DNA from: a virus
Lineage: Duplodnaviria; Caudoviricetes
DNA length: 53,254 bases
Strand: one strand, 5' to 3'
Virus record (IMG/VR): IMGVR_UViG_3300048686_001049
Span: 1 to 53,254 of that record
Shown here: piece by piece, positions 1 through 42,700 of the stretch
Numbering within the stretch: the stretch's first letter is position 1
Layout of the letters: each line of letters opens with the position of its first letter
Program-made: the position numbers and the translations under genes
Notes under the pieces: model-generated
What the model was told of the DNA's origin: nothing
Databases searched by the model: none
Seen by the model: the letters and a program-made list of their open reading frames with translations, nothing else

Positions 1-3000
1 ATAGTAAAGAGACGCAATAAAAAACGCAAAAAATATAAAAAACTAAATGAATTTGATGCGGAAGAATACGCAATCAAGGAAAAAACTTTAGCTTCAGGAA
101 AAGAAAAATTCTTTTATATCCCTGTTGATGTGGAAAATGCTTTTGAAGTAAAATCTTTACTGGACGCAGTACTGGACCACCATAGGGTTGATTCGTTTGT
201 TGATGAATATGGAATTGTTTTAACATCCGGACTAACAGCCGAATCAGTCGATGCAATAAATATTGCAGTAAAAGGCATTGGGACAAGAATAGGAAAAAGA
301 ATTGGCAGCGGTCTAATCGATAGACCGAGAATCGGTGACAGAAGAAGAAGGCTTGGTGGCGGAAGAATTGATATACCTACCGGCGGTATGCGTGGCACAA
401 AAAAACCAACAGGAAACCGTCGCGACGTTGATGCTGATGGTTGGGCTGATGAAGGCACCACGAACCCAGTATGGGTTGGTCTGCCTTCGGGCGCAAACAA
501 AAAACCCACACCATCAGGTACTGGTAAACCCAAAAAACGCACTCCAATCTGGGAGCAAAATCGTCGCCCAAGCCCACCAGTCCCTTCGCGACTCAGAGAG
601 TTGTTGGATGACAAAAAACCAGAATCACGTCGGACACCTCCTCCGGCCCCCCCAAAACCAAAGCCTACAAAAACCCCATCTTCACCACCTCCACCCCCTC
701 GCAAAAAAGAAAAACTATCTTCAGGCACAAAAGATATTACTAGACATCGTTCTGCCAAAAAACTAAAAAATCCAGCCGAAGACGCAAAAGAAACAGACTT
801 TGAAAAGATTGCAAATTCATGGCGCGAACAAGGATTGGGTTGGGTAGAAATTCCGCGATACCCGGCTGACAAAAAACTAAGCAACGATTTCTTACGCGGC
901 AGGGAACTTGGGTACAACCAAGTAAGAGTGATGTGGAATGGTTCGGGCACCTATAAGCGGCCGGCCAATTTTAACGAGAAAGCAAAATCTTCGGTTGAAT
1001 ATAGGACTTGGTTTTTGAACACAGCTAAAACTGCTGGCGAATACATAAAAAACAGCCGTAAAAGCAGTAATACAAGCGAAGCAGAGAAGGAAATAAATTT
1101 TGGCATTCCCGAAGGCATAGAAAACTTTTTGGATGCAGTGAAGCCAAATGTCTCTGGCTTGAGCATGAACGACAGAAGAGAATTTTTTGGTGCACTAATT
1201 CAATATGAGTTAATACCAAGGAAAGACATATTTGGCGGAGATTATGGCTTCAGAGGTGGATACGTACCCCCTAAAGCCATAGAACCTAAACCAAGCAAAA
1301 AACTCAGCAGCGGCAGAAAAGTACCATTCCCTGAAGTAAAACCAAAGCGCACATCAAAACAGCAACGAGATGACGAAAAAATTTACAAGCGTCGCAACGA
1401 CGGAGAGTCTCTCGCCGATGTTGCTGAAAGCCTTGGTCTTTCTCGCGAGGAAGTAAGAAAACGTGAGCAACGACACATGCGTCGTCTTCGCAAAGAAGAG
1501 GGCGAAAGACTAAGTGAAGATTCAAATCGTTCCGGTGAAACACTGTCTTCTGGACGACGAGAGTACGAAGACAAATCAAAGACTTCGGTTAAAAACATGC
1601 CGGCAGATGTTCGGTCGTTTCTGAACCAACAAATCGAATCTCAAAGAAAGATAAACAAAAACTCAGATGTTGCAAAACTCTATGAAAAACTTAGAGATGG
1701 GTTTGAGTTGGACGCCAATGAGCGAGACTTCATTATCGATTTCCTTGACCAAATTGAAAAACTTTCTACGCAAGACAGCCGCGTATATACCCCTGGACAA
1801 AGAGCTTCAGCAAGAAGATTAAATGCGCTTTTGAATAAAGACAACCCAAATTTCCGGGCCCCCAAAGGAACAGAGTTAAGAGACCTTGATGTTCCTTTGC
1901 GTATGGGGGAAGGCGGAAAACTTTCTTCCGGTCTCAAAAAACCAAGAACATTTAGAGAGATGATGACCGAAAGTGACAGACTCAGAGCGCAAGGAATAAT
2001 GTCGGATTCATCATTATTTGACGATGAATGGCAAAAAACTGAATATGGCATTAGAATAAATGCGCCAGACATTGATGGCTCTTATGAAATACAAGGCAAC
2101 GCTAAAGATGGATTCGTAGTCTCTCGTATTGCCGACGCCGTACGTAACGGTGGTCAAGAGGCCAAAGAGTACGAACATGATAAAGTTTTTAAATCAAGAG
2201 CTGCAGCAAAAAAATGGGCAGCAAGAGACTATAAGCTGATATCTCAAGAGGTAGGTCTTTCTTCTGGACGTAAAAAAAAAGGGAAGACAACTAAACGTAA
2301 ACCATTCTCCCCTGAGGACCGACAAAGATTTGCTGACGGAGACCGGTTAAAAGCCAGAACAATTCCGAGCAAAAAGAAGCCTGGCCCAAGTATTGATGAA
2401 TTCAGATTAAGCAGTGGATATGGCGGAGGGTCGAGACCTGCTCGTCGCCTTGCTCAATTGAATCGCCGAGAAGTTGAGCAAATCTATATTCAAGAATCTA
2501 GGGGCATGGAAGAACAGGCTAAAAATCTTTTAGCCAATCTCAAAACCCCATCGTTTGACGAAAGCCTTGAAAAAGGTTCAAAATTAGAGACCATTCGTGG
2601 AAATCTCAAGAAAGCATTCACAACTCCAGCGCTTGTTGGTTCTCTGTCGGATAATAAAAACAGAAAAAAAGACGGACCATGGATGCTTTCGTTTGAAAAA
2701 TTAAGACCCCTTTTGAGAGACCCTAAGGGCGAACCAATGTCTGATGAAAACATTAAAAAAATGTTCAATCTCAATGAAGACGAAATGAAAAAATTGCTAG
2801 GGAAAAACGGCGCAATATCGTCTGCTTCTGTTCAGTCGTATTTGACTGCACATTCGGATACTAACTTGCCCGGCGAATCAGATGGACTAATCAGAAAAGT
2901 TTGGGGATTTGATTCTGCCCCATATTGGTATGACGGCCTAGAAGATAATAAGCCAGTAAGTCGTGAGGATTATGACGCCGCCAAAGACGAATCAACCTTT

Positions 3001-6000
3001 TTGGGTGCCATCTACCCCTTAGATGCACCTATAGATTTTAAGACTTCAACCGAAATAGATGAAGACGCTCTTCCTAAAAAGAGAGAAATAGTTGTTGCAG
3101 AAGATGTAAAGCGCTCAATAGAAAGCGTGAAAGGAAAAGAATCTAAAGAGGCCTACAGTCTTGACAAGTTAATTGAAAAACTTAATATGCCAGCTGATTC
3201 AGGAAAAAATCGAGAAGAAATAGCTAAAGCTTTTGAGAAGTTACTAGGGGTCCCAACTAGCACGGAACAATTATTTACTTCTCCAGGTTCATGGAGAAGA
3301 AATGGTGTACCAACAAATGTGGTTTTAGAATTAAAAAAACGTAAGCACATTACTAGTGCTGCCGACGTTTTTGGTAGTGATGAAGCCAAAAACCTTGACA
3401 AAGCAACAGAACAAAATAAATTCTTTAGTGCTTTAGATAATCTCCTAAGAGCAAATGGGATACAAATAGGAGGAGGTAAGGGCAATCTTTCGGACAGAGT
3501 TATTGGTGAAATTATGGGAGACGCTATTGGCTCTAAGCCTTTGGCAAAAATAGGTCGAGCCTTTAAAAAAGCTGGAGAAGAAAGGCCTTTTACTTACAAA
3601 GTGGGCGCCGCTGTCGTTTGGACTCCAGAAGAAATTCAAAAAACTCTTGATGGAATTAATAAAGCAACAGGAAAAGATTTTAAAGTTTCTGACCTTAAAT
3701 TGAGTAGCGGTAGATTCGGCAAAGGTGAAAGAAAAATAGCACCCAGAGCAGCAACTGCAGTTCAAATGGAAATGGACCCCCGTAATTCCAAACTTGCTAA
3801 AAAAATTACTTATGACCCACAAGACCAAGTTCTTGGAGTTACATATAGGGACACCGGTAAAACTGTTGAATTCAGAAACGTTACATACGAGAGTGCTCGA
3901 CAGGCTGGGGCTTCAAATAATCCAGACAAATTTATTAGAAGCCTGGAAGAAGGTCGCAAGTTATCTTCGGGCAGAACTGGGACTGAATCTTTTTCAGCTA
4001 ATGAATCAATTAACGAAATTGACGAAAGATTGCGTACAGCCAAAAAAAGAGGCTCAAAAGTATTTAATGAAATGCTTCGAGCAGAAAGTAAAAAACAAAG
4101 TTCTCAAAAAGCAAAACCGAATCCACTAGACAAAATGAAAGATGGTGAACGTCTTTCATCGGGCAAACTTGATGAAGTTTATAAGTCAATCACTCAAAAA
4201 TTAATTAAAGCAATAGAGACTGCTGATGGAGATAAGTGGGAAGCCCCTTGGTACAAAGTTGGTGCATTTCCTAAAAATCCAACCAATAAAAACCGTCCAT
4301 ACTCAAACACAAACTTATTGTTCCTATTAATGGCGCAAGAAGATAAGGGATACACGAAACCATATTGGGCAACATACAAGCAGTGGGAAAAATCTGGCGG
4401 CCAAGTCAAGGCGGGAGAAAAAGGAACCAAAATTCTCGTCCCAAGAGTTTACAAAGCAAAAGAAGATGATGAGGGCAACAAGAAGGGCGGCGGAGTATTT
4501 TATTCAGTTGCAACGGTATTTAATGTCGACCAAGTAGATGGCGTAGATGTTGATGAGATGGAAAATAAATTTCCAAAACTTTCAGAAGAGCAAAGAGTTT
4601 CTCAACTTGAAAGCGCTATTAAAGAAATAGGTGCAAAGATTACCGAAGCCGCAACTGATAGGGCTTACTACAGTCCATCAAAAGATGAAATAGTTCTACC
4701 AAAATTTGAAAATTTTAAATCTCCTTTGGATTTTTACGCGACTCAAGCTCACGAATTAATGCACTGGACCGGACACACATCACGTCTAAATAGACCAAAC
4801 ATGAATTATTTTGGTAGTCCAGAATACGCATACGAAGAATTGGTAGCAGAAATTGCTTCTGCTTTCTTTATGGCAGCACATGGTCTCTCCGCGGAGCCGC
4901 AGCCACAGCATGCGATGTATCTTGCTTCATGGCTTAAGCGACTCAAATCAGACCCTGATGCTCTGCAAAAAGCAGTGTCCGATGCACAAAAAGCTGTAAA
5001 TTTCGCCATCAAACTATCCCCGAGCATGAGTAAACAAATGGCCGTATCAGAAAACGTAGATGACGTGCCTGGGATAACGGTCCCCGACACTGGCGGTAAG
5101 TTGTCGTCGGGTAAAACTCCTGATTTACCTGCTCTTACTAGGGCGCTCGAAAACGCAGGGCTTGCTGAATCAGTAACCGAAAATATGATTACTGAAGCTA
5201 TTGGTGTATGGAAGGACAACCCTTCGCTACATAGGCAATATATTGAGCGTCTTGACGGAGATGTTAATGGCGCAGTGTTCTCTCTCTATAACGATTATCT
5301 CGAAGATATGTTTGACCGCTCTCCAGAGGGAGCCGCAAAAATAGAACGCGAGCTTAATGAACAATATGAAGCAACACAAAGCCTTTCGTCAGGCAGACCA
5401 TCAAAAAGACTTTCGCGTCGACTAAAAGATGATGAATCATCAAAACTCTCATCTGGCAAGCAACCATGGGATGACCCCGCTGTACAGAAAAGATTAATAG
5501 ACGGTGCAAGAACAAAAAAGAAAACCAAAGCCGATGGTAAAACCGAAAGTTACATGGCAAGCATGGTTAGACAATTTGACGCAGGGAAAAAACTGACAGA
5601 CAATCAGTGGAAACCTCTGTGGGAAAGCTTCGGCGGCGAAACCTCGGCCACAAAACCGAGCACACCGTCGACTGCATCAACAAGTAAAGCCCTTAAGCCA
5701 TTTAGCGGCCTTAAGCGTAAAGAAATAGACCTGTCTGATGTTAAAAAATATGATTACCCAACGACTGATGCTAAAGGAAAGAAAAAACCACTTCCGACAG
5801 AAGAGCAATCAGATGCGATAGATGCAATGATGACCGGTAGCGACGTCAAGGTTGCCGCATTAGCCGCAACCGGTAAAACTACTACGGTAATCAATTTTGC
5901 AAATCGACTTCTAGATGAAGAACCTGAATCAAGAATTCTTTATTTAGTATTTAATAAAAATGCTGAAAGAGACGTTGTAAAACGTGGCATGCCAGAAAAC

Positions 6001-7983
6001 GTAACAGTCAGAACAATGGACGCAGTTGCCTTCCGCGCCATGAAAACAATTGATTCGAAAATGACTGACAAAAGTTTTAATCCATCAATAAAACCAATCA
6101 AGTCTTTCCGAGATAGAGCGGCATATCTTGGTGTCAAGAGAATGGTGTCTCAGGGAGACGAGCTAACATCTGCCGATGTTGTGAAAAGAATAGCAAAAGC
6201 CGTAGAACATTTTTCGATTAGTAGCGATACGGAAATCGGACCACAACATTTTAATGGGAAATTTAATGGAAAGCTTGCTGTCGACGATGATGCAATACTC
6301 CCGGAATTAGTGGCACTTGCCAACAAGTACTGGAAAGACATTAAAACTCCACGAGATGGAGTTGCTGGAATGTTGCCAGTCAATAACACACATATTACAA
6401 AAATGTGGGCTTTATCAAAGCCAGACATAGGTTCGTCAATGGATGTAAATATCGCAATGGTCGATGAAGCGCAAGATATGAACCCGGTTTTTGCTGAAAT
6501 TTTACAAAAAGCAAATAAAGTGCAAAGAATATATATAGGCGATACAAACCAGGCCATAAATGCTTGGCGCGGCGCGGATGGACAGACTCTTGTCGACGCT
6601 CCAGCTAAATACACAATGCCAATAACTGATTCGTTTAGATTTGGTAAAAATATTGCAGGCATAGGCAATAGATTTCTTTCGCTACTTGGAGCTAAGGAAA
6701 AAATGACTGGTCGGAAAGTGGATAAATCTGGCAACCCGGTAGATGGGTTTATTGGGGACGTAGAAAATCCAACAATGATTCTTACTCGCTCAAATGGTGG
6801 AGCGATGGCCGCAACGATGAAGAGTTTTGAAAAAGGCCTAACCGTCTATGGCAGCAAAAACTTCAAAGAAGATTTAACAAAATTTATTGACAATGTTGAA
6901 TACATGGAAACATCCGCTAATGGCAAAAAAGGTTATTACACCAGCGCTGATGGTAGAAAAATCTATGAAAGACCATCAATGAGTCAAGACCTTGATGGCA
7001 TCAGCAATATTGAAGAATTTAAAGAAGCAGTGGAAAAGGGTGATGATAATAGGCTAAATATGCTTAACAAGCTGTTGAGCGAACATGGCGTTGAAGAACT
7101 TCGAAATGCCCTTGGCAGAATCATAACCGATGAAAAAAAATTACCCAAAAACCGTGATGAATATGTTCACATACAGACAGCACATACGTCTAAGGGTCTA
7201 GAGTCGCCCAGAGTCCAGATATGGAGCGATTTTGCTAAACCCAAAAAAGCTACCGATGGCACAAACATCACAATAATGCCCAACGAGCAAGAGCTCAGAC
7301 TTTCTTATGTGGCGGTCACCAGGGCTGAAGAAAAACTAGATTTGGGTTCTTTGTCGTGGATTTATAATCATACGAGCGACGAGGATGGCGCATCGAACAA
7401 ACTCAGTTCTGGTGCAAACTTGTTGATGCCGAGACTTTCTGGAACACTTTCGAACGCCATAATTAATTCAACACCGGCGGCTCGTAAAATGAGAAAAGAA
7501 TGGAAAAAGCGCGAATCAATGTCTGGACACCCATCTAAGAGAAAGGGTATAAAATTAAGTTCCGGAAGATATCTTAATTTTGAACGAATATTGTCTTCGG
7601 ATGAACTTGATGACAACCTAGAACCAATTAGGGGGCCTTATGGGGACCCAAATGACTTAATCCACCGAAAGCAAGTCAGATATGCGGTTCGCCGTTTCAA
7701 ACATACCGAATCCGTTCCAGTCCGTCAGCGTAGTACTGGGCTTCCTACTGGGCGTATGGTTGAAAGAACCAGGACATATTTCTGGATTGAAGACATGAAG
7801 ACCAACCAAACCCCAGTATGGGCTTCAGGTATTTTTTACTACAGAAACCACCTAATAGGAAGATTGCAATCACACCTAAATTCATTGTCGGAAGACGAAA
7901 AAGCCGCACTAGTAAAAGAATACGAAAAAAGTGCCAAAACATTTACCCGTCGCACGAAGGATGAATTAAAAATTCCATCCTAA
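1..7983 (+). CDS. Giant polyvalent protein 1 (>2660 aa, 5'-truncated): leader, sigma70-r4-like HTH, KTSC, ArdC and UvrD-like helicase modules separated by 14 LSSG motifs
   Basis: Frame 1 is open from base 1 (IVKRRNKK...PVDVENAF), so the GTG at 130 is probably internal. Domain motifs are listed in the sub-features. Confidence 0.85.
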   Translation: MVKRRNKKRKKYKKLNEFDAEEYAIKEKTLASGKEKFFYIPVDVENAFEVKSLLDAVLDHHRVDSFVDEYGIVLTSGLTAESVDAINIAVKGIGTRIGKRIGSGLIDRPRIGDRRRRLGGGRIDIPTGGMRGTKKPTGNRRDVDADGWADEGTTNPVWVGLPSGANKKPTPSGTGKPKKRTPIWEQNRRPSPPVPSRLRELLDDKKPESRRTPPPAPPKPKPTKTPSSPPPPPRKKEKLSSGTKDITRHRSAKKLKNPAEDAKETDFEKIANSWREQGLGWVEIPRYPADKKLSNDFLRGRELGYNQVRVMWNGSGTYKRPANFNEKAKSSVEYRTWFLNTAKTAGEYIKNSRKSSNTSEAEKEINFGIPEGIENFLDAVKPNVSGLSMNDRREFFGALIQYELIPRKDIFGGDYGFRGGYVPPKAIEPKPSKKLSSGRKVPFPEVKPKRTSKQQRDDEKIYKRRNDGESLADVAESLGLSREEVRKREQRHMRRLRKEEGERLSEDSNRSGETLSSGRREYEDKSKTSVKNMPADVRSFLNQQIESQRKINKNSDVAKLYEKLRDGFELDANERDFIIDFLDQIEKLSTQDSRVYTPGQRASARRLNALLNKDNPNFRAPKGTELRDLDVPLRMGEGGKLSSGLKKPRTFREMMTESDRLRAQGIMSDSSLFDDEWQKTEYGIRINAPDIDGSYEIQGNAKDGFVVSRIADAVRNGGQEAKEYEHDKVFKSRAAAKKWAARDYKLISQEVGLSSGRKKKGKTTKRKPFSPEDRQRFADGDRLKARTIPSKKKPGPSIDEFRLSSGYGGGSRPARRLAQLNRREVEQIYIQESRGMEEQAKNLLANLKTPSFDESLEKGSKLETIRGNLKKAFTTPALVGSLSDNKNRKKDGPWMLSFEKLRPLLRDPKGEPMSDENIKKMFNLNEDEMKKLLGKNGAISSASVQSYLTAHSDTNLPGESDGLIRKVWGFDSAPYWYDGLEDNKPVSREDYDAAKDESTFLGAIYPLDAPIDFKTSTEIDEDALPKKREIVVAEDVKRSIESVKGKESKEAYSLDKLIEKLNMPADSGKNREEIAKAFEKLLGVPTSTEQLFTSPGSWRRNGVPTNVVLELKKRKHITSAADVFGSDEAKNLDKATEQNKFFSALDNLLRANGIQIGGGKGNLSDRVIGEIMGDAIGSKPLAKIGRAFKKAGEERPFTYKVGAAVVWTPEEIQKTLDGINKATGKDFKVSDLKLSSGRFGKGERKIAPRAATAVQMEMDPRNSKLAKKITYDPQDQVLGVTYRDTGKTVEFRNVTYESARQAGASNNPDKFIRSLEEGRKLSSGRTGTESFSANESINEIDERLRTAKKRGSKVFNEMLRAESKKQSSQKAKPNPLDKMKDGERLSSGKLDEVYKSITQKLIKAIETADGDKWEAPWYKVGAFPKNPTNKNRPYSNTNLLFLLMAQEDKGYTKPYWATYKQWEKSGGQVKAGEKGTKILVPRVYKAKEDDEGNKKGGGVFYSVATVFNVDQVDGVDVDEMENKFPKLSEEQRVSQLESAIKEIGAKITEAATDRAYYSPSKDEIVLPKFENFKSPLDFYATQAHELMHWTGHTSRLNRPNMNYFGSPEYAYEELVAEIASAFFMAAHGLSAEPQPQHAMYLASWLKRLKSDPDALQKAVSDAQKAVNFAIKLSPSMSKQMAVSENVDDVPGITVPDTGGKLSSGKTPDLPALTRALENAGLAESVTENMITEAIGVWKDNPSLHRQYIERLDGDVNGAVFSLYNDYLEDMFDRSPEGAAKIERELNEQYEATQSLSSGRPSKRLSRRLKDDESSKLSSGKQPWDDPAVQKRLIDGARTKKKTKADGKTESYMASMVRQFDAGKKLTDNQWKPLWESFGGETSATKPSTPSTASTSKALKPFSGLKRKEIDLSDVKKYDYPTTDAKGKKKPLPTEEQSDAIDAMMTGSDVKVAALAATGKTTTVINFANRLLDEEPESRILYLVFNKNAERDVVKRGMPENVTVRTMDAVAFRAMKTIDSKMTDKSFNPSIKPIKSFRDRAAYLGVKRMVSQGDELTSADVVKRIAKAVEHFSISSDTEIGPQHFNGKFNGKLAVDDDAILPELVALANKYWKDIKTPRDGVAGMLPVNNTHITKMWALSKPDIGSSMDVNIAMVDEAQDMNPVFAEILQKANKVQRIYIGDTNQAINAWRGADGQTLVDAPAKYTMPITDSFRFGKNIAGIGNRFLSLLGAKEKMTGRKVDKSGNPVDGFIGDVENPTMILTRSNGGAMAATMKSFEKGLTVYGSKNFKEDLTKFIDNVEYMETSANGKKGYYTSADGRKIYERPSMSQDLDGISNIEEFKEAVEKGDDNRLNMLNKLLSEHGVEELRNALGRIITDEKKLPKNRDEYVHIQTAHTSKGLESPRVQIWSDFAKPKKATDGTNITIMPNEQELRLSYVAVTRAEEKLDLGSLSWIYNHTSDEDGASNKLSSGANLLMPRLSGTLSNAIINSTPAARKMRKEWKKRESMSGHPSKRKGIKLSSGRYLNFERILSSDELDDNLEPIRGPYGDPNDLIHRKQVRYAVRRFKHTESVPVRQRSTGLPTGRMVERTRTYFWIEDMKTNQTPVWASGIFYYRNHLIGRLQSHLNSLSEDEKAALVKEYEKSAKTFTRRTKDELKIPS
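1315..1542 (+). other. Sigma70 region 4-like HTH module in polyprotein 1
   Basis: GESLADVAESLGLSREEVRKREQRHMRRLR matches the tl.EiA..lglSreRVRQiE.rAl.kLR pattern; bounded by LSSG at 1303 and 1543. Confidence 0.7.
3712..3960 (+). other. KTSC-like module in polyprotein 1
   Basis: SKLAKKITYDPQDQVLGVTYRDTGKTVEFRNVT...ASNNPDKFI resembles the KTSC pattern; bounded by LSSG at 3700 and 3961. Confidence 0.65.
4165..5100 (+). other. ardC: ArdC-like antirestriction module (ssDNA-binding N domain plus zincin MPTase)
   Basis: WEAPW...PKNPTNKNRPYSNTN...WATYKQW...GGQVKAGEKG...VFNVDQ, AYYSPSKDEIVLP, HELMHWTGH (4750), YAYEELVAEI, YLASWL; bounded by LSSG at 4153 and 5101. Confidence 0.9.
5790..7401 (+). other. 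SF1 UvrD/FBH1-like helicase module
   Basis: PTEEQ, Walker A ALAATGKTT (about 5857-5883), LYLVFN, VDEAQD (6460), GDTNQAINAWRGA, SFRFG, TAHTSKGLE, YVAVTRA; ends at LSSG 7402. Confidence 0.9.
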
Positions 7984-7990
7984 AAACTAG

Positions 7991-8011
7991 TTGTCAATAG
8001 ATGTTTGACAA
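7991..8011. promoter_or_regulatory. Inverted repeat TTGTCAA-N7-TTGACAA upstream of the 8138 gene
   Basis: Perfect 7-bp dyad containing a canonical -35 TTGACA, in an intergenic gap. Confidence 0.4.
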
Positions 8012-8137
8012 TATCTAATTTATTGATACTTCCCGTATGGGCCTTATGGTAGCGTATACTTTTACAAAGACATTTGTAATTAATATAACGGCCATTTTCA
8101 GGAGTGGCTAAAACAACAAACCCCAGGGAGTCATGAA

Positions 8138-9844: not shown

Positions 9845-9860
9845 AAAAGGGGCACCCGCC

Positions 9861-12800
9861 ATGACGGGGAAGCCGTTTCGCAAAACAAGAATAATAATTT
9901 CAGACAAATTAATATCTGCTCACACCGAGGCTAAAGATACTGATTTTTCTGCACATTTTTTTAAAAATGCCGTTTCTGAATCAATGAGTTCACCTCGCCT
10001 TGACGCTGATTTAGCCATTAAAAGCTTGGGTTCAAGCATTGGTTCAAAGAAAAAGCCAACATACGACAATACGGACAATAAGACCCGAACCAATTCAGGC
10101 GGTGAGCCAGGAATGGTAGTTACCCCCAATGGCTATAGATACCAACCAAAAGAAAAAAATGGTCCAGGCAAAGAACTTGTTTTGTTTCCCTCACAGAAAA
10201 GTCGAGAGTCAAACGGAAAAACCAGTAATTTTGGCTGGCTTGATAGAAAAAATACAAGCAGCATAAAAAACTATATTCAGCATCAAAAAGAACAGCCTCA
10301 AATAAGAATTAGAAAGTTTAAAGTAAACCCTAAGACGGACGAAATTATTCCTGGTTCAGACATAGAGATGTCTCCGTTCCGCAAAGATAATAATTCAGAA
10401 AACAATATTTCTGAAAAAATGCTTCCAGGAAGAACTCTTGGGTCAAGAGGAACATCACTAATAGGTAGGGCTGCAGGAAAATTCGGCATAGTAAGGGATG
10501 CTTTAAACAAGTTCAGATGCCCGCCAGGAACCCCAGCCGCAAACCAATTTACGGACCACATGGGAAGCAATTGCTTTGGTCAGTCAGCAGGAGACTTAGT
10601 TGACTTTGCGATAGACGCTTTTCAAGCAGCCCGCAAAGCTTTCACTGAACCAAACTCTCGAGAAACATTATCTAAATTTTTCAAAGAAGCAGCCTATGAC
10701 GCCGACAATGGAAGATTTGGTTCCTTTTTTGCTCGGACAATGTGGCGCGATGCTGACGGAAACAAAATACGTAATTTACGTAAATGGAACTCAGAACTAA
10801 GAGAGGGTGAATACAAAATATTTGCGGGGGGCATGGCAAATGCACAACTCGAACTTGAAGCTCAAGATAATCGAATAGCAAATCTTCGCGACTTATTGGG
10901 AGTACCAAGCACCCCAGAAACAAGAAAAAACAACGACGACCTTCATGAAATATTTAGGATTTTAAAAGAAAGAGGAATGCTAAATGTAACCCTTGGCAGC
11001 CCAAATCCCCAAGAAGAAGGAGAGGGACAACGACCTACCCCTGAGCAAGTAGCTCAAGTGGTTGAAGCAAGACTCAGGGCAGTACCAGGATTTAGCGAGC
11101 TATCAAGAGAGCAGCAAGAAAGAGTCATTGCAAATGATATTGAAAGATTCTATGAAACGGAACGAGCTTTGTTGGAAGGGTTTTTAGATGAATACGTCAA
11201 AAATCCAGAACATATGGGAACTATCAAAAACCTTATTTATGAATACAAGACGTCGCCACCAGCTGAATTTTTAGATGAAGCGAGCTATAACGTAAATGTC
11301 ATAAATGGCCAAGCTATTGGTGAAATAAGAATTGATATTCCTTTCATAATGCATTCACAAGAAACAATGCTGCCTCAACTGGCAGACAATGAAAGACTAA
11401 GAATTGATGTTGTTGGCGCAAAAACTGATTCTGAAGCGGCTAAACATCTTGGCGATTTCTTACTAACTACTGCTCAGCATTCCAAGCAACATGCGGCAAC
11501 AGTCGAAGAAAGAGGGTTTGCGCGACACATAATCAAACACGAAATAGCACACTCAATTCAGGCCAGGGTGTTCTTTGATGAAGCCAAAAGACAAATTAAC
11601 GAAAATGGCTTCATATCAATTGGGGATAAAAAAATTGAAAGCCTAGATAAATTAACTGGTTCAGATTTGCTTAACCTCATGACCGAATCAGCTGATTCCA
11701 TTAATCTTGAACAACTCAGTAAGGCTTTATCAAGAACAGAAAATATTATGTTCATGGCCGGGGAATACCCTCGAGACTACATAGACAAAGGTCGCGAAAT
11801 CACGGCAATTGAAGCAACAGCAGAGCTTTGGGCTCTAAGAAACGCAGGGCTGATTTGGGGCGACGATGTTGATGCCGCCCTTGAGTGGATGGACAATAAA
11901 GCTGACGGACGAATCGGAGAAAAAAGGGTTCGCTCCGATATTGAAACAATGAGAATTGTTGAAGATTCATATTATCTAAGCCCTGGCGAGTCTTCTGCTC
12001 CTTGGTACGTACCAGAAGACCCAGTTGCCACAGCCGCGGCGAAAAAACGAGCAGAAAATAAAGCGCTTAAAGGTGCTATTGAAAAATTGGACCACGACAC
12101 AATTATTGATGAACTTGCGCAACTCGAATTTAAAAAAGATGAAATTAATTTAAAAATCAATGCCGCAAAAGCCATAGGCGAAGACGTTTCTGATTTAGAA
12201 AAACAATTATCAGAATTGAAGAATGATGAAAAAATTATTCGTTCTGTATGGAAAAAGAAATATGGTACCGGCTCCGAAGACGCTACGGCTCTCAAGCTAT
12301 TAATTAAAAAAAGAAGAGAAGAACATGGTGCATTTACGCCAGACGTTCTTGAATCAAAAATTCGTGACAAAAAAATAATGGCAGCAAAAGCCGATGCGGC
12401 GACTATAGACAGCTTAGATGAATTGGTGCAAATGATGGCGGCTTATGACTTGGACATAAGACTTGCAACCAGCGATAAAGACAAAGGATTAAAGCGTGAA
12501 GAAAGAAAGGCATACCTTAGTCGATACCGAGCACTCCTTGATAAATCCGGCGACTCTCGTAGTTGGGTTGAGCAAAAGCGTGAAATGGAAGAAAAAATAG
12601 ACAGAATTCTTAGGCCTACAAAAACTGCGCCACTCAAAAAACCCAAAACCCCAACAACCGACAAGCAAGCTACAGATGTGGGTAATAAAGCAAGAGAAGA
12701 AGCGCTACGCACAGCTACACCTAGACAAAGAATTGCAGTTTCAGAATTTTCTGACTCACAAACATCTTCAGTAGCTCAGTTGTTTGATGCAGAAAAAAGG

Positions 12801-15800
12801 GATTCAGCTCTTGCTGGCATGAAGGAAAGAAATCAAAGGCTAAAAAAACAAGGCCTCAAAATCGACCCTACATTGCGAGGTGAGGCGTCACCCGAAGAGC
12901 AAGTCGAAAATATTCTTATTCCAACAATGGAAATTATCGACAAATCCAGAATTGGTACAAACCTAGAAGTAGAGGCAGAAATTGAAGTAGATGTTAATGA
13001 CGTTACTGGGGAAATTTCGCTTTCGGAAATCACGCATGACTCATTTATAAGCGGACGTGTTTTATCTAAAAAAAATCCATTTTCTGTAGATTCAAAAATC
13101 AAACCTCCAGTTAATGGAAAACAAAAAAGAAAAATAATAATTCAAACCACCGAAGAAGATAGAGGTATATTCCCTCATTGGTCAATGGATGTTGACAAAG
13201 ATGATAAGCGCCCACAAAAGCTAGTTTTACCTCCAGGCAAGTTGAAAGTCGTAGAAATACGAGACGATGGAACAGTAGTCGCTCAAATATCTGAACAGAA
13301 AGATACTGAATCAGTATTAGATACCTTGGTCGCTGCTGATATTAAAGGAACCAGGTTTCGTTCAGTTGCCGACAGGTACATAGTTGAGCGTAGAGAAAAC
13401 AAAATTCCACGCGAACAAAAAAGACCACTAAAAGCGCAAGAAACCCAAGACCGAGGAATTCTCGCCACTCGAGAATTAAAGAGAAGAGGTGGACGTTTTG
13501 GTCAAGGTCTTGATGATGACGATATAGATGAATCGTCTTCAAAACTTTCTTCTGGCAAGATTCGTACCAGAAGCCAGGTCAAGTCGGAAAGAATTAAGAC
13601 AGAAAAAGAAAACATTGCAGACGTCAAGGCTGTTCTCACAGGTAATGAACCAACTAAATTCAAATCACTTTCTCGTGACTCCTTGGACCCAGAGGTGGCT
13701 GAATTAATTATAAAAAACGAGCCAGAACAAATCATCAAATTAGTCGAAGACGCTGCAGTTGAACTACATAACAGCATGGATAAAAGAACAAGAGTCAGAA
13801 TGAGAGAGTCCGAACTCAATAATTTTGTTTCTTCTGGTACTTACAATCCAAGATTGCAAGCAGAAACAGTTCTGGATTCAGAATCAAAGCCAAACAGCAG
13901 GCTAAAGCGCAGGATTAAGGACTTTAGGGATAAGGCAAAACAAGCTGCCGCCGCCCAGGGGGCCAAAGATGAATTTAAAAAATTAAAAGAAGCAAATCTA
14001 GGCAACGGCGAACTACATAAACTGGATGATGCGACATTAATGAGCAACCTTGGCCTAGAACGCTCAAAACAAAAAAGTGTTATTTCAGACAATCCAATAT
14101 ATAGAACAAACTCTGCCGAACAAGCGATTGCTTTGTTGGCTCTTGGCTATGAAGTAGAGGTTCCAGACAGAGCCGAACGAAAGATGGTCAAAAATGCAGC
14201 GCTACAAACCGAAAAAGAACTTAAAACTCTTGCCGGAGCAGAAGCTGACAGTCTTGGGTTATCTGGTGACGAAAAAGATAAATACATTAAAAATTTTATG
14301 GAAACGCATGATATAGACCTTTGTGGCTTATATGAGGTCGGACGAAATCTCTTTTGTAACGAAAACATTGGAGTCAATCGTGAACACATGCCACAGAGCG
14401 GAGGCCCCACTAAGGGAGCCAATTCACCAGCGATGAGGGCTTTAATATCTGGCCATGTTGGCGGTGAGTATAAAGATGCCTTTAACCCTTCTTTGTCCAA
14501 GGAAGATAAGGAACGATATTTGGCAATAGTAAAAAATCTGGGAAATCCTGACACGTTTGCGAGCGTTAGTGAAGAAGATAAAAAATGGGTATTCGATAAT
14601 ACTGTTTGGAGCAAAGTCGAGGTTGTGACAGAACCCGAATTGATAAAATTTCTAAAACAAGCCCTTCCTGGTGGAGAAGACTCAGTCGTCCGTAAGTCAA
14701 AAAATCCAGACGACCTTTTTGCATCACAAAAACAATTAAAAAATGCACAAATTGATAAGACTGCTGAAAACATTTACGACCAATACATGGCCGCCAGAGA
14801 CAAGTGGGGCAAGCCGGGGACTGAAGAATTTATTAAAAATCGTCAAAATTTTTTGGATTCAAAAGAGGCATGGTTTCAGGGGCCAATACTTACGTCAAGA
14901 GATGGGTATGTAGTTGACGGACATCATCGATGGGCTGGCATCAAAATGCTTAATGACCATTTGCCAGAAGATGAAAAAATTCAAGTTCAAGTAAACGAAT
15001 TGCAAACATCTATTTTTGAAGCCCTGACTTTAGCAAAAGTATTTCAAGAACATCTGGAAATTAAAGGAAAAACTGTAGGAAAAGTTGTTCCTTATGAGGA
15101 TGGCGAAACCAAGCCAATGTCCAAAGCAGATTTTGATGAACATATGGCGCTATTAAATAATCAGATAAAAGAAAAAATTCAAGAAATAAAAGACAAAAAC
15201 ATCTATCCAATTAAAGTCAAAAATCTTGCAGCCAATAACGAACTACGTTCTCCGGGTCTCAAAGATAGTCGCGACAGGTCTGTGCGAATATACGGCATGG
15301 AATGGAAGCCAGAATACTCAGAGAACCAGGCACTTGAAGCATCCAAGAAATGGGATGGGTGGGATGATGTTCCACTTACGGAAATTGATTTGTCATCAGA
15401 GATTCGTCCGACCGAATCCCACTTAAAAGGTTCAGCAATAGATAGCGTTGTTTCCGGCGAAGTTCCTTTTAGGGAGGGTTATCACCCGCATATCGTCATA
15501 GACGTTGATGGGAAAATGTATGTGTCTGATGGACACAATAGAGTTGCCATGAATCGTGCTTTAGGGAATCAGAAAATACAAGCACGAGTAGTCGACCTTC
15601 GAAAAGTTGATGCACCATGGGGGGCGGTAGACCCAAGTAAGAAAAATTACAAAGGCTACGACCTTGTCGACCCACCAAATCCTTTTCCAAAAGATGGCAC
15701 ATATCCGGTCGAGATAGTGGAGGCAGCTAAACAGCAACGAGAAAAGATAGAAAAAGTAGAAAAAGAAATTACGGAAACATTAATAGACCTTGCAGAAAAA

Positions 15801-18272: not shown

Positions 18273-18926
18273 ATGAACGAAAACAACTTTTCTCAAAAAC
18301 TAGACCCTCTTGGGGGTATTCTCCCACAAGAGATAATTACAGGGGATATTCTTCGCGGCTACGGCCCGCGTAGGGGTAATTTGGAAAGACTTCTTCGATA
18401 TTGGCGACCGATAATGAAGAAGCCTGGCGGATTTCGTCGGTGCAGGGTCATACTTGCCGACCACCCAGAACTCTACCCCCTCAACAATATCTGCGCATGG
18501 CTGCATCATGAAACAACTGGTCTTTGGCCAAACGAAGGCTGTCATCATCCAGGCATGAAAAATTGTCGAGGTAAGTTGAAGAAAAGAAATTGGTCAAATG
18601 CTGATTTTTCTAGAAGATTAAGAAGTTTAGGAAACCCTAAGAAAAAAAATTTAGAATTTAACGAAGAAACTGATGATGTTTTCTTTCATGAATTTAAATC
18701 ATTGCCCCAAGATGAACTAACTCCAGTTGTAACTAATTTAGATATTGTCCACGGTATCGAAGTTTTGCGAGACTTTATCGAAATGGAAGAAAAATTCATA
18801 CAAGAACTTAGAAATGTAGATAATTGGGAAATACATGGTGAAGACGAGAATGGCCAAAAAATGATTATTGGGGCTTCCGAAAAGTCTTTAAATCAAGAAT
18901 GTTGTTCGCAAGATGATTTTATCTAA
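18273..18926 (+). CDS. Head-module protein with GNLERLLRYW...GGFRRC...CAWLHHETTGLWP motif
   Basis: ATG at 18273 after GGAG; motif resembles a Cys/His domain seen in actinophage head proteins (recall, not searched). Confidence 0.7.
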   Translation: MNENNFSQKLDPLGGILPQEIITGDILRGYGPRRGNLERLLRYWRPIMKKPGGFRRCRVILADHPELYPLNNICAWLHHETTGLWPNEGCHHPGMKNCRGKLKKRNWSNADFSRRLRSLGNPKKKNLEFNEETDDVFFHEFKSLPQDELTPVVTNLDIVHGIEVLRDFIEMEEKFIQELRNVDNWEIHGEDENGQKMIIGASEKSLNQECCSQDDFI

Positions 18927-26270: not shown

Positions 26271-26294
26271 CCCTAATTCAGAAAGCGATTCATT

Positions 26295-33155: not shown

Positions 33156-33199
33156 AAATTTAATAATTTCTCTTTCTCAAAAAAGAAAAAAATAGCGCC

Positions 33200-33613: not shown

Positions 33614-33635
33614 TTACACAAAAGGGAGTTAGTCG

Positions 33636-34031: not shown

Positions 34032-34032
34032 A

Positions 34033-36702: not shown

Positions 36703-36764
36703 ATAATTAATAAACCTTGTTATATCGACTTCAGGTCGACAGAGCATACAATAGATATACCACT

Positions 36765-39700
36765 ATGTTCGAACCAATCATTATAAAGCTTGACTACTCG
36801 CCACGAGACGAAAGACATAGCAAGCAGATAAAAAGCGTGGCATCTAGACTCGGTAAAAGAATTGGTAGAGGCCTGGCGGGCAGGCCAAATATTGGTAAAA
36901 ACAGAAGAACGATTGGTTCTGGAAGAATTGACATACCCACTGGTGGTGTGCGTGGATACAAGAGACCAACAGGAAATCGTCGCGACATTGACAGAGATGG
37001 CTGGGCAGACGAAGGCACAACTAACCCTGTATGGGTCGGGCTGAGCGGTGGGCGAGATAGACCAATTATTGAAACCCAAAGAGCTAGACCAAAAATAAAT
37101 TTAAATAATCAAAAAATAAATGAAAGAAAAAAAATTCGCCAAAAAATTAAATATGGCGAAAGTTCTTTGGATGGTAAATTAATTAGTAAAAAAAACGGCC
37201 CCAAATGGTTGAATGGATTAAGCAATGAGCAGATTTCAAACATCCTCGTCCCCGACTCGTATCAGACTTATTCTCAAATGCTGGCCGATGGATTCGGTGT
37301 CGACAAAGAGACTATAGAAAAATATCTTGAATCTAGATGGGGGGTTGGAAAGCCTTGGTTGGAAATTGATTACTCGGAAAGTTCAACTAAGCAATTAAAA
37401 CAAGCACTCAAAACTGCTCTTGACGAATCGCCTATTTTTTCTTGGGCCGTAAGAAATTACGGCTCACCAACATATACGGTAATGACCAGAAAAAGTGCAG
37501 AAACATACAACAATCGAGATGCAGTAAGGCCATTATATGATGCACTCAAAAAAATGTATCCAGATGCACCTGGAGAGCCACAATTTGCCGCAAGCAATCA
37601 TCTTGATTTTGAAATGGTGACTTTTAATCCAATCAATGTGATTGATAAAAAATCATGGCAAACAAATGAACCAATTTCAAGCAGCTTTCAAACGTCTAAA
37701 TTACCATCTAGCTCCGACACCGTAATAGATAGAAGCATCTCTGGAACTATTTTGCATGAATGGGCTCATTGGTATCACTCTGAGATGCTTTTGGCAAATA
37801 TTGAAAGTTCCGAAAATAAAAAACGGTCACCCAAATCTCTAGTTAATCCTCAAGATTCAGATTTTGCCGAAAAAATAAAAATTGCACTTGAGTACAATTC
37901 TGATAATGGAAACATGAATCTTCATTCAACAAAAAAACCACTAGAAGATTCACAGAACGAGCCAAGGACGATTACATCTTATGGGCACGTGAGCAGGAAG
38001 GAAATGTTTGCAGAAGGGATGCTTGCCTATATGCACCCTAATGAGCAGCTAAAACTTAAGGCAATAAATAAAAAATTGAGACAAGATATAGAGACAATTT
38101 TAGCTGGAGATAAGGGCGTTGATGCGTGGAAAGACAGTAAGGCAAACATAAGAAGAGAAAAAAATATTTTAAGTTCGGGTAGAAAAAATCGTAAGCTAAC
38201 AAAATTGTCATCAGGTTCAAAAACTGAGGAACCCGAAAGACCAACGTACCCAAGACACCCTAGCTATGGTCCATTCCTTGATGGCGCTGATGACGTGTTT
38301 GCGGATGTAAAAAACTGGAAAGAATTCAAAGAAATTTACGATAATTTAGAAATAAATTTCTTTGACTACGAAACCACTGGATTGGTTTCTGACGAATTTC
38401 GACAATCGTCCGGTAATGGCGCTCCAGTGCAGTTTGGTGTAACAAAGACCAAAGGCGGCAAGGAAATTGGTCGACTAAATATTTTTATGAACCCGGGAGA
38501 AGAGCTTGGGGATTGGTCGAAAAAAAATCTTAAAAACAAAGACGGAGAACCACTTACTGACGAATGGCTGTCATCTCAAATATCGATAGCTGATGCGCAT
38601 AAAAAATTAATCGAATTTGTGGGTCCTGATGCAATTTTTGGAGTTCAAAATGCAGTATTTGATAAAACGGTACTAGAAGATGCACTGACATCATCAGGCA
38701 TCGAATGGAGACCAAAGGGCTGGGTAGATACGAAAGTTGTATCCGACTTAGTAATTCCTAAATGGACAAAAGAAAATCAAGACGCACCTTGGACTACTGA
38801 CGGGAAAACTGGTGAAAAAATTCCGTCAAGTAGCCTAAAGGCTTTGACCGAATATCTCAACATAGACCTTGGGAAAAAACACCATACAGCAGACGCTGAT
38901 GCGGCAGCCACATCAGAGTTGATGTCAAAAATTATTGATAAAGCAATTGAGAAAAATTGGAGCAACGATATTTTTGATAAAAATTGGCGCGACCAAAAAA
39001 TCAAAGACAAATTAGAAAACTATCAACAAAAAATTATTGATTTTGAACAACAAAAAAGTAATTGGATTTCTGAAACGTCGCCTAAAAAATCCACAGTGCC
39101 AAAAGAAGTGGAGAAAAAAGAATTTGGTTTTGGTAGACTATCTAGTGGTACCACTTCGTACAAGGGCCGTCACGAATCTCCTGATGCGTCAAGTGGGGCA
39201 CCTCTACACAACCTGGCTAATGGCGCCATATATCCAGAAGATATCTATGGTCCAAATGGGGCGAACCTTTATGGGGGCGCATTCCCGGATTTAGCTCAAA
39301 AAGCTGTTGCTATTTTTAGAAAACTCCGCAATAAACCAGACTCTGAATTAACCATATATAGGGCGGTCCCAAGGGGCAAAAACATTAAAGAAGGCGACTG
39401 GGTAACGATTCTCCCCGAATACGCAAAAATACATGGAGATAGTTGGTTGAAAGACAACTATGAAATAGTGACCAAGAAGGTAAAAGCAAAAGAATTATTT
39501 AATGAAGGTAATTCACTTCTTGAATTTGGTTATCACTCAAAATTGTCTTCTGGCAAATACGATGGTGCCCCTACGTATAAAGGAAAAGTCTGGAAAGATA
39601 GAAAAAACGAATTAGATGGCCCTGTGTGGCCATTTCGGTCTCAAGCCAAACAGTACCCAGACGATGGTCCGTCGGGAATTTCATATTTTAAAGGCGTAGT

Positions 39701-42700
39701 TGATGATTCAACATGGGTTGATTGTCTGCTTTATAGAGATGATTCAGGAAAAGTTATTGGCATCTTAAATCATTATCCATTTGCTCTTGTGGACCCAGAT
39801 GACCCGCGAATTGTGGAAAGACGCGGGAATATTAATATCTTTATTGACCCAAAACATCAAGGTAAAGGTATAGCGACAAAACTTGTAGATGAAGCAGTTT
39901 CTCGATATAACGTCGACCTACGCAGGCAGCGATATAGCGAAGATGGCGCAAATTTTATAAACAGGTATATACGTAAGCTTCCCGAAAATAGGGATAAATC
40001 AAAACTTTCATCTGGAAGCCAACCACGAATAAATCTTTCTGATGAAGAAAAACGCGAAATCATAGCTATCGCATCTCAAAGAACCGATGATTTCTCAAAA
40101 AGTGTTGTTGAGCAATTCAGAAGGAATGGAAAGCTCTCAGATAGACAATGGAACGCCCTTAATAAAGCGACTCTTAGACGTTCAAGATTAAGTTCTGGAA
40201 TGAATACCCCTGAACTCAGCGAGATGAGCAAGCAAAGACTTCAACGCCGAATTGACTCATATGAAGCCGCAGTAAAAAAGGGAGATGGTAGTGAGTCTAA
40301 ATTACCATGGGATAAAAATGGGAAAATTAAAGAAAAACCAATTATTGTTTCTGAAGTAGATGACGACTACGACGATGACGAAGAAATGAGTGCAGAAGAA
40401 AAAGAAAACCAAGCCGCATATCGCGAAACTTCAAATATTAGTCCTGCAGAGATGGCTAGAAGAATAGAGCGAGAAAAAGCATCCAAGGAAAGACTCTCAT
40501 CTCCTGAGTACTTAGAGGAGAGTCGCCTTAGGCGTGTAGCAAGAAATAAAGGTAAGGAAACCAGCACGCACAACGCAGATGGAACGTTGAAAACAGAAAA
40601 TAAACCGAAACTATCGTCTGGTAAAACCAACAGAGCCAATAGAAGAGCCAATAATTCAAGATTAAGCTCGGGTAAAAACACTGACACCGAGCCTCAGTTT
40701 TTGCCAATCGAAAACCTAACAGCGGCACGAGACTCGAATACAGATACAAATCTACAAACACCCGCAAAGAGACGGGTGTATGTGAAGTCAAAGATACCAA
40801 AGGTCGGTCGGTTTAAAGAAGCAGACTACCCGTTAAACGTTCAACTGTCTATCGTAGAAGACTATAAAGATAAAAGAAAAACACTTTCTTATATTGCAAA
40901 AAAACACAATGTCTCTATTAGTGTCGTCCAATTTTTGGCACGGCAATATAATTTGCCATACAGGGTAAACAATCCGAAGTCTCCTCGACGACAAAGAATT
41001 ATTGAAGCCATCAGAAACGATATGCCGTTTGAAGAAATTATGGAAAAATTCAATACCTCAAGAGAAGAAGTGATAAAACTTAAAAATATTTCAGAATCTG
41101 CTAAAGCAAGAAAATTAAGACTAACTAGAGAAAAGATTAGAAGACAAAAAAAAGAAGAAAAAATAATCCAACTATTTAATGATGGTTTAAGAATCACCGA
41201 GGTTGCGAGGCTCACCAAGATGGATATCTCGGCAGTAGCCGACGTGTTGCTTGCCAACGAGGGAACAAAACCAAAACTAATAGCGAGAAGGGACGGAAGT
41301 CAGCCTTATCGGTCGATTCTTATACCACAGGTTCGTGAACTATTTAAAAATGGACTGAACATCGCCCAGATTGGAAAAACACTAAAAAAAGACATTAAAA
41401 TAATCCGCAAAATTGTAAATGAAGATGAGGAATTATCAAAATTGCAAAGAGAAAGAATTAAGAAAAGATTTTTACTTGCTCAAATTAGTGAGGAACTTAG
41501 AGAATTTTTCATAAACGGTGGGAGCATGGAAGGCGCAATTGAAAAATTTGGTTTATCACGAAAGCAGATTAAACAATGGAGAGAAAGACAAGCGGCACAA
41601 TCACAAAAACAACCAGGAATACCCCGACTACCCCGACTACAAAGAGGACTCGAGAATGGAACGTTGAAAACAGAAAATAAACCGAAACTATCGTCTGGCA
41701 AAACCAACAGAGCTAACAGAAGAGCCAATAATTCAAGATTAAGCTCGGGTCAATCACCAGTTTTTGATGACCAAGAAAAAAAACAAATACTTGACACTTT
41801 GGAAAAAGAATTCCCCGGCGGAATAACTAATACGATAGCGAAAATTGCAGACTATTCGGGAAGTAGGTTTCAAAATAATAAAAATGACCAAGTGGAGCTT
41901 AGTCCAGAAGAAAAAAAAGCTGTTAAAGCACTTGAAGATTTAGGCAAAATAATTGACCAAAAAATATCAAAATTGATTAATGAAAGAAAGACCACAGAAG
42001 GCTCGAAAGAATCTCAAGAAATACGTTTATTATCTGAAAAAGAAAAAACATACCAAAAAGTTGCTAGTTATTTTAACGCAATACAAAAGGTTATTGACAG
42101 CAAGTATGAGGATGTGGCCAAAATCGACAAACAGGTAAGGAAATCAATAGTTTCCAACATATATAAAATTCCAAAAAAAACGTCAAACATAGACATGGAA
42201 TATATGATGAATAGCAACAAGATATCTGGCTCCCATTTAGTTCAACTAATAAAAGATGTCAGAAAAAATTTAACTGCCGGAGAACTCCTTAAGATAGATG
42301 ATGCCTGGGATGGCTTCTTTGACGGCCAACCGGTAGTCAATTTTAGTGATAGCACCCGCTATTACATTAAGAGTTGGAAAGACAGGCTATACCTTACGGA
42401 TTTAGTTAGTGAAGCCGATATGGCATTTTTAGAATTGAAAGAGAATAAAGCAATCACACACGACATCATGAGGACTCTAAATCTTGCTGACCAAATATTA
42501 AAATCTCTTATTCAACAAACTCAAAGAGAAGAACGTAAAATTTCAGAATTATCAGATGCGGAAGTATTGGATTTTATAGAACGAGAAATATATCAAAACG
42601 GAGAGGCTTTTGGCCCGAAACTTGGTTCAAAGAAATATCGTCGAAACATATTAACCGGTCAAGCGTTTACTTCTGGAGAAGATTCCCCAAATCCACTTCC

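Follow-up and report, generated by a model that had tools for sequence, protein, structure and literature searches.

Prohead proteases such as T4 gp21 and SPN3US gp245 cut ejection proteins at short motifs (PMC7411985). In systems of the T4, SPN3US and phiKZ type a head serine protease cuts the capsid protein as well as internal or ejected proteins (in T4 the internal proteins and Alt) at a short motif that all of them have in common, and T4 gp21-type proteases themselves bear a self-cleaved targeting propeptide (PMC7411985). Polyvalent proteins, defined by Iyer, Burroughs, Anand, de Souza and Aravind in 2017 (PMC5512222), are giant multi-effector proteins found in virion gene contexts, which carry ArdC-N, MPTase, helicase and helix-turn-helix (HTH) domains; their processing by embedded peptidases was predicted in the same work, in analogy to the polyproteins of RNA viruses. 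Here we analyse a 53,254-base contig of an uncultured tailed phage (Duplodnaviria; Caudoviricetes; IMG/VR record IMGVR_UViG_3300048686_001049), denoted the window at its full length, which features three giant open reading frames (ORFs), P1, P2 and P3, punctuated by the tetrapeptide LSSG. The motifs are tentatively regarded as cutting sites of a head-maturation protease fused to P1.

Proteases of the T4 gp21 type cut after glutamate, and in these systems mostly N-terminal propeptides are removed from separate proteins. In contrast, the putative protease described here is of the HK97 type (Peptidase_S78, S78 hereafter), and is fused in cis to about 3000 amino acids (aa) of cargo. The motif is also different, being of the hydrophobic-x-Ser type, found 8-16 times per protein at module boundaries, and varying among lineages. 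As to polyvalent proteins, the main text of PMC5512222 names no cleavage motif ('LSSG' and 'linker' both occur 0 times in it). Assemblin-like peptidases are described there as rare in polyvalent proteins and always C-terminal, whereas the family described here has its S78 domain universally, and at the N-terminus. In the Dar antirestriction system of phage P1, large proteins (DarB, 251 kDa) are packaged in the head, and their genes lie beside those of the portal and of an HK97-like prohead protease. N-terminal signals for capsid targeting are described, and DarA is believed to undergo processing (PMC9024508). The Dar proteins, however, are encoded by separate genes unfused to the protease, and neither cutting of DarB into modules nor a repeated site motif is reported in PMC9024508. 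The order portal-then-protease is shared with HK97, but HK97 gp4 is a free-standing protein of 225 aa, adjoined by the capsid gene, whereas about 15 kb of cargo genes are interposed here, and the protease itself bears cargo. MuF- and portal-fused effectors likewise gain access to the capsid through the head-assembly protein to which they are joined (PMC5512222); here the carrier is the maturation protease, and its many modules have explicit separators between them.

LSSG motifs in giant phage proteins

The whole contig belongs to a tailed phage, and encodes an HK97-type major capsid protein, a ribonucleotide reductase and a primase. Its ends, when compared, do not overlap. According to CheckV, run on related contigs, 132 kb correspond to 88% completeness; genomes are therefore about 150 kb in size, and the window covers about one third of one of them. 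The nearest named phages are Gordonia myoviruses, at a capsid protein identity of only 45%. Relatives have been gathered in two sets. The former includes 61 IMG/VR loci, found by scanning with a conserved 568-aa protein encoded between P1 and P2; the latter derives from a scan with the capsid protein, which matched 281 stretches, 80 of which were kept. Single members are denoted by L followed by a number.

LSSG is found 14 times in P1, once in P2 and 10 times in P3 (Table 1), and is the commonest tetrapeptide in both P1 and P3. Composition predicts 0.092, 0.053 and 0.075 copies, respectively, and the maxima reached in 2000 shuffles of each protein were 4, 2 and 2. One LSSG is present in the 22 other ORFs of at least 150 aa (6715 aa). 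K or R are found at position -1 in 21 of the 25 sites, and at position +1 in 16. The sites are encoded by 24 distinct 12-mers, in which the first serine is specified by TCN codons in 16 cases and by AGY codons in 9, the second by TCN in 21 and by AGY in 4. The 60 flanking bases, compared between pairs of sites, have a median identity of 30%. Scrambled codons and flanks so little alike indicate that selection acts on the LSSG peptide. Since two P3 sites are copies of two others within a 98-nt repeat, independent sites are about 23. Linkers are nearly free of near-variants such as LTSG, and the 12 aa on each side of the motif exceed the protein mean in both hydrophilicity and basic character (permutation p <= 0.001).

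Seven domain ranges have been recognised in the giant proteins by Pfam or PDB sequence search, Sigma70_r4, a sub-cut-off KTSC, ArdC and a UvrD-like helicase in P1, RNase_T, GNAT and HTH_28 in P3, and none of the 25 sites falls within them. The recognised domains account for 34% of P1, and the chance that 14 random sites all miss them is 0.003; they account for 12% of P3, where the corresponding chance is 0.29 and the result is uninformative. Three residues past the LSSG at P1 aa 1385-1388, homology starts to residue 8 of free-standing ArdC (6sna/6i89, E 1e-45), and a cut at this site would be predicted to recreate the natural ArdC N-terminus. The AlphaFold2 model of P1 aa 200-1399, built from 14 sequences, is poor (mean predicted local distance difference test score, pLDDT, 42.6), and features two confident domains only. 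Endpoints of BLAST matches cluster near P1 sites (0.32 vs 0.15 at random, p 0.015), a weak trend, with 46 of 110 matches spanning a site. By their multi-domain make-up, Sigma70_r4, ArdC-N, MPTase-PolyVal and UvrD helicase in P1, RNase_T, GNAT and HTH_28 in P3, and with capsid and portal genes nearby, P1 and P3 have the architecture of polyvalent proteins as defined in 2017; their delivery into the host along with the DNA would be expected on this basis.

In P3, two copies of the 98-nt direct repeat, 96% identical and hosting two sites each, surround a module of 1077 nt that includes HTH_28. This module looks like a cassette inserted or duplicated via its linkers. The relatives of P3 are only four near-identical contigs, and P3 hence provides no comparative test. 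P1 and P3 share a further element, which carries the motif D-x-D-G-D-G..EGT. It closes the conserved N-terminal core of P1 in all lineages, and the P1 copy of the window is 62% identical to P3 aa 38-126. In the relatives, other large proteins of the head module have the same element close to their N-terminus (for example L015:17315-21130), and in the window it is also held, at about 26937-27035, by the ORF at 26277-27500. It may be a capsid-targeting element.

An initial annotation of the window had listed the LSSG motifs at 25 positions, all of which have been reproduced exactly. Its estimate of a strong excess stands (0.05-0.09 copies expected per protein), as do the basic neighbours, the selection at the peptide level and the lack of LSSG within recognisable folds, on which P3 is uninformative. 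Among the modules that it named, HTH, ArdC, DEDDh (RNase_T) and GNAT have been recovered; KTSC was found below cut-off only, and the ART-like module was not detected by Pfam or PDB sequence search.

One LSSG, along with LSSS, LASG and LSAG, occurs in a 672-aa ORF (18913-20931), which has 686-aa homologs in the relatives and no family match. This ORF had been considered as the portal, and was rejected; the portal of the relatives sits upstream of P1.

Lineage-specific forms of the motif

Relatives belonging to other lineages carry GFAS, GFSS, GMAS (usually RGMASR), GLAS(T), GLRS(S) or FSSG(R), in 4-9 copies vs 0.03-0.1 expected. Observed and expected numbers are 9 and 0.04 for GMAS, 9 and 0.07 for GLAS, 8 and 0.10 for GLRS, 8 and 0.04 for GFAS. 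As judged by comparing the relatives, LSSG is the variant that one lineage has of a motif shared by the family, [G/K/R]-[L/F/M]-x-S-[G/S/T/R]. The same form recurs in separate genes of one genome. P1 and P2 feature 7 and 4 LRS in L056, 6 and 4 LAS in L055, 10 and 4 LSS in L025, 7 and 3 FSS in L012, respectively.

Homologous sites hold their place while changing form. P1 homologs start with a conserved core of about 530-700 aa, and the first site past this core occupies one aligned column, filled by LSSG, GMASR, GFAST, GLASY or GLRSS. Sites flanking ArdC are kept across the LSSG lineages, though their flanks have diverged. In all 10 aligned homologs of the G clade, a G-[L/F]-[R/S/A]-S site stands ahead of a conserved module of about 150 aa at the C-terminus. 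These homologs include minimal forms of P1 (1027-1086 aa), which have almost no cargo. Such forms, known from L013-L021, L047, L051, L053 and L057, have only a short middle part and a single G-L-R-S site between the S78 core and the conserved C-terminal module. They probably represent the state before cargo acquisition. Inserts found in L024 and L002 have copies of the motif at their bounds. In P2, positional homology of the site between clades is not supported by a global alignment of the homologs.

The comparison suggests that a protease with a self-cleaved C-terminal part may have received cargo cassettes, each with a copy of the junction site that was either brought along or acquired later. 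The arrangement of the P1 site ahead of the C-terminal module resembles the self-cleaved C-terminal propeptide reported for SPN3US gp245 (PMC7411985).

A prohead protease domain at the N-terminus of P1

P1 is truncated in the window by the contig end. The full-length protein of L001 (98% identical to that of the window) measures 3127 aa, and starts with a Peptidase_S78 prohead protease domain. Peptidase_S78 (PF04586) was detected at the N-terminus of all six P1 homologs scanned, L001 included (38.6-45.1 bits vs a cut-off of 21). A hidden Markov model built from these domains matches 42 of the 43 loci that include the P1 N-terminus; the exception, L012, is cut by the contig end and frameshifted. 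In the relatives, the ORF directly upstream of P1 is the portal gene (Phage_portal, E 5e-52).

The S78 domain is 26% identical to HK97 gp4 (E 3e-9), in an alignment that spans the His and Ser motifs. WGH-NW pairs with FNHKTW of gp4, EWSIGY with GMSVGF, and H64 and S128 are invariant in 23 sequences; His and Ser are presumably the catalytic residues of gp4. Among named proteins, the domain is best matched by capsid maturation proteases of Gordonia phages, the very phages that also give the best capsid matches. The P1 domain is therefore predicted to be the phage's own head-maturation protease, fused to cargo. A short S78 segment sorts with the form of the motif, as it reads CAT in the LSSG clade, LI[TSA] in lineages with Phe forms, and LV[SPT] or LLP in those with Leu and Met forms. 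No punctuating tetrapeptide was found in the proteins of Gordonia phage Gray, the nearest named relative by both capsid protein and protease, and there is consequently no cultured model at hand.

The junction in the capsid protein

A cut mapped in phage P1 gp23 reads AMLE↓SVAAEM (PMC9024508). The capsid protein of the window is 39% identical to HK97 gp5 over the mature part (E 1e-60), and the sequence L-T-S, at aa 94-96, is found 4-7 residues before the residue aligned with gp5 Ser104. The maturation boundary of HK97 gp5 is TFNK↓SLGS. HK97 and phage P1 gp23 have in common a hydrophobic residue at the third position before the cut, and serine at the position that follows it (P1'). The motif of the giant proteins, read as hydrophobic-x-S↓, would fit the pattern, P1' being S or T in most G-clade lineages. 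The capsid junction is LSS or LTS in all eight capsid proteins of the LSSG/FSSG clade examined, among which those of the window, L063, L097, L068, L072, L073 and L081, and G-L-G-S or S-L-G-S in four of the six examined from the other clade.

Proposed processing of the giant proteins

It is likely that some protease cuts at the motif. That this protease is the fused S78 domain, and that the cuts release cargo modules inside the capsid, is a tentative reading, to which we assign close to an even chance. According to it, P1 would enter the procapsid by its conserved protease-plus-core region, and P3, perhaps also P2, by related elements. Once activated, the protease would trim the delta region of the capsid protein, and cut in cis and in trans every linker site, these sites being presumably disordered basic stretches between the modules of the packaged giants. 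ArdC, helicase, HTH, exonuclease, GNAT and other modules would be left as separate proteins of about 50-650 residues, and would exit with the DNA at infection. S78 is favoured as the enzyme because it is fused to the cargo, with an ancestral-looking junction site even in the minimal forms, and because the capsid protein carries a motif-like sequence at the junction between delta-like region and body; cutting of ejection proteins by prohead proteases provides an experimental precedent (PMC7411985).

Several observations weigh against this reading. Cleavage is deduced, and no cleavage product has been observed. P3 is encoded in the replication region, and its packaging is purely conjectural. The S78 domain sits off the 5' end of the window, and is 76-90% identical across lineages that differ in the form of the motif, so that lineage-specific specificity would have to rest on few residues; the zincin-like domain of P2 varies far more around its active site. 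Of the nine sites included in the AlphaFold2 model, only three could be judged (239, 435 and 515), all lying in low-confidence linkers. The alignment to HK97 is of low similarity around the capsid junction, which in the G clade (GLGS, GLGAS, GLDRS, GLGRN) is independent of the motif form of the giants, and no LSSG or close variant was found in the capsid protein or in the head-module proteins of 260 and 366 aa.

The enzyme may alternatively be a zincin, the best candidate being the HExxH domain of P2 (aa about 441-760), perhaps along with zincins of P1 and P3; the cut would then be made on the N-terminal side of the hydrophobic residue, [K/R/G]↓[L/F/M], either within the capsid or once the cargo has been injected. 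This is the main rival and a serious one, but even with mixed schemes included we consider it rather unlikely. Many zincins prefer a hydrophobic P1' residue, and a cut before such a residue would be expected; the K/R at -1 would suit lethal factor, whose preference is for basic residues upstream. The P2 domain was found in 50 of the 61 loci, with invariant H-E-x-x-H..Q and E..AE (11 loci have no match, and many loci end at a contig end); H120, E121, H124, E211 and E215 are invariant in 17 sequences, and the residues flanking the active site differ by lineage, in parallel to the form of the motif. The AlphaFold model of the domain (pLDDT 67.5) best matches zincins, namely the catalytic domain of anthrax lethal factor (Z 8.2, root-mean-square deviation 3.7, 139 residues aligned), the PPEP-2 and PPEP-3 endopeptidases (Z 5.1-5.2) and the ArdC peptidase domain (Z 4.7), but a Z of 8.2 is in the middling range. 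No match to PDB sequences was found for the domain, nor any Foldseek match to PDB at E <= 0.001; profile searches of two alignments against PDB sequences gave nothing meaningful; only one of 17 members has a Pfam match, sub-threshold, to eCIS_core (E 0.079); and ESM Atlas provides only leads below 0.9 (LPD1, LPD23, a zincin-like cluster, ATLF). Further HExxH motifs are found at P1 aa 1584 and P3 aa 347 and 2304, and zincin processing of polyvalent proteins has been predicted (PMC5512222). The zincin of P1, MPTase-PolyVal, occurs however in only 20 of 60 P1 homologs. It is missing from P1 of the G-LSSG, GF[AS]S, GMAS, GLAS and GLRS lineages, all punctuated (L025, L030-33, L034-36, L043, L048, L052, L055, L056, L058), and cannot be the general enzyme; the embedded zincins had been among the candidates of the initial annotation. 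Cutting by zincins would moreover leave both the motif-like capsid junction and the fusion of S78 to the giants unexplained, and the literature searched offers no experimental case of phage head cargo processed by a zincin.

The motif might instead not be cut at all, and serve in intact giants as a repeated docking motif, for the scaffold, the portal, the capsid interior or a host factor, or as a site of serine modification. Its location in disordered basic linkers and its invariant serine agree with such a role, with which the data are compatible; Iyer et al. state that the virion RNA polymerase of N4 is packaged without being processed (PMC5512222). Yet a docking tag need not sit at exact module boundaries, recreate the ArdC N-terminus or flank cassettes on both sides, it would be by coincidence that a protease is fused to the giants and that the capsid junction resembles the motif, and no kinase or other modifying enzyme is seen in the third of the genome that the window covers. 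This explanation is accordingly held to be improbable. Least credible of all is that the motif has no function, having been inherited from a linker copied at each module insertion. The recent 98-nt duplication of one P3 linker pair and the motif copies bounding the L002 and L024 inserts are what such copying would produce, but the distinct 12-mers with their TCN and AGY serines, the flanks about 30% identical, the paucity of near-variants and the coherent change of form by lineage at homologous sites contrast with it, and indicate that the peptide is under selection. Two other mechanisms, translational skipping of the bacterial 2A-like kind and self-cleavage by N-O shift, have been discarded on general grounds, as they need features absent from short disordered linkers.

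The tentative reading of cleavage by the fused S78 protease recasts the proposal of the initial annotation that LSSG is a protease site. The comparative data have much strengthened this proposal, which is partly supported, in which cleavage is still a deduction and from which the universality of LSSG has to be dropped. The prohead protease, thought to be a separate partner, is the N-terminal domain of P1 itself, just off the window. Homologs that keep the domains but lose the motif, indicated as evidence to the contrary, have not been seen; sites stay at homologous positions. In agreement with the statement that the motif was undescribed, neither LSSG nor a fusion of S78 to polyvalent proteins is described in the literature searched, the scope of which left subscription journals and supplements outside.

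Other features of the window

The features discussed are listed in Table 1. The 568-aa protein encoded between P1 and P2 (8138-9844) has relatives in all 61 loci; its N-terminal part is very acidic and rich in Met, Asp and Glu, and a sub-threshold PepSY match is the sole family hint. The two HExxH motifs of P3 (37755-37769 and 43626-43640) have no family match, and may mark additional zincin modules. The head module includes a protein with DUF5872 and DUF3721 (21710-22810), and one with DUF6321 (26295-27503). The gene directly upstream of the capsid gene may encode the scaffold. An HNH endonuclease fused to an excisionase-like HTH is encoded at 49705-50478, and is probably a homing-type mobile gene.

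Table 1. Location of giant proteins, modules and motif sites in the 53,254-base window.
Feature	Position	Strand	Remarks
P1 giant polyvalent protein	1..7983	+	2660 aa here; 5' end cut by contig
Core-end element, basic, G/R-rich	268..534	+	closes conserved N-terminal core of P1; D-x-D-G-W..EGT in this copy
LSSG site, P1 aa 239	715..726	+	first site past conserved core; position kept, lineage-specific form
LSSG site, P1 aa 435	1303..1314	+	
Sigma70_r4 HTH module, P1 aa 459-498	1375..1494	+	Pfam or PDB sequence search
LSSG site, P1 aa 515	1543..1554	+	
LSSG site, P1 aa 641	1921..1932	+	
LSSG site, P1 aa 753	2257..2268	+	
LSSG site, P1 aa 803	2407..2418	+	
LSSG site, P1 aa 1234	3700..3711	+	
KTSC-like module, P1 aa 1263-1311	3787..3933	+	20.7 bits vs Pfam cut-off 25
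LSSG site, P1 aa 1321	3961..3972	+	
LSSG site, P1 aa 1385	4153..4164	+	just before ArdC; position kept in relatives
Complete ArdC unit, P1 aa 1392-1676	4174..5028	+	ArdC-N plus MPTase-PolyVal zincin (4603-4980)
LSSG site, P1 aa 1701	5101..5112	+	past ArdC; position kept in relatives
LSSG site, P1 aa 1795	5383..5394	+	
LSSG site, P1 aa 1816	5446..5457	+	
UvrD/FBH1-like helicase module, P1 aa 1925-2448	5773..7344	+	
LSSG site, P1 aa 2468	7402..7413	+	19 aa past helicase
LSSG site, P1 aa 2519	7555..7566	+	
P2 giant, 2649 aa	9861..17810	+	one LSSG; no Pfam family at E <= 0.01
P2 zincin-like domain	11181..12140	+	HEIAH at 11538-11552; invariant H-E-x-x-H..Q and E..AE
LSSG site, P2 aa 1229	13545..13556	+	
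HK97-type major capsid protein	22963..24318	+	PF05065, E 6e-44
L-T-S-R, capsid aa 94-97	23242..23253	+	junction of N-terminal delta-like region and conserved body; candidate maturation site
P3 giant, 2419 aa	36717..43976	+	replication region; 10 LSSG
P3 aa 38-126, copy of P1 core-end element	36828..37094	+	
LSSG site, P3 aa 485	38169..38180	+	
LSSG site, P3 aa 497	38205..38216	+	
RNase_T (DEDDh) exonuclease module, P3 aa 548-735	38358..38921	+	
LSSG site, P3 aa 808	39138..39149	+	
LSSG site, P3 aa 943	39543..39554	+	
GNAT module, P3 aa 998-1065	39708..39911	+	
LSSG site, P3 aa 1097	40005..40016	+	
LSSG site, P3 aa 1158	40188..40199	+	
98-nt linker repeat, copy 1	40579..40676	+	LSSG at 40611, 40662 (P3 aa 1299, 1316)
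HTH_28 module, P3 aa 1599-1624	41511..41588	+	within segment bracketed by repeat
98-nt linker repeat, copy 2	41656..41753	+	LSSG at 41688, 41739 (P3 aa 1658, 1675)

Implications

In the literature searched, the processing of polyvalent proteins has been a sequence-based prediction since 2017. Processing by embedded peptidases had thus already been proposed; new are the explicit site code, varying among lineages, and the N-terminal fusion to S78. The family lends itself to tests, as its site is short and explicit and varies naturally among related genomes, two enzymes are candidates, and some cuts would recreate a free-standing protein such as ArdC.

A large group of uncultured phages with genomes of about 150 kb may have a true polyprotein strategy, in which the protease carries the cargo in cis, and lineage-specific separators (LSSG, GFAS, GMAS, GLAS, GLRS) yield 10-15 anti-host proteins. 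Cassettes would be bounded by this code, which would co-evolve with the enzyme reading it, and the boundaries of effectors could be read from the sequence. This wider picture is possible, if somewhat doubtful. Were it true, the motif would delimit dozens of uncharacterised effector modules in at least 281 related contigs, and an HK97-type protease would double as the vehicle which loads, and then releases, the injected cargo.

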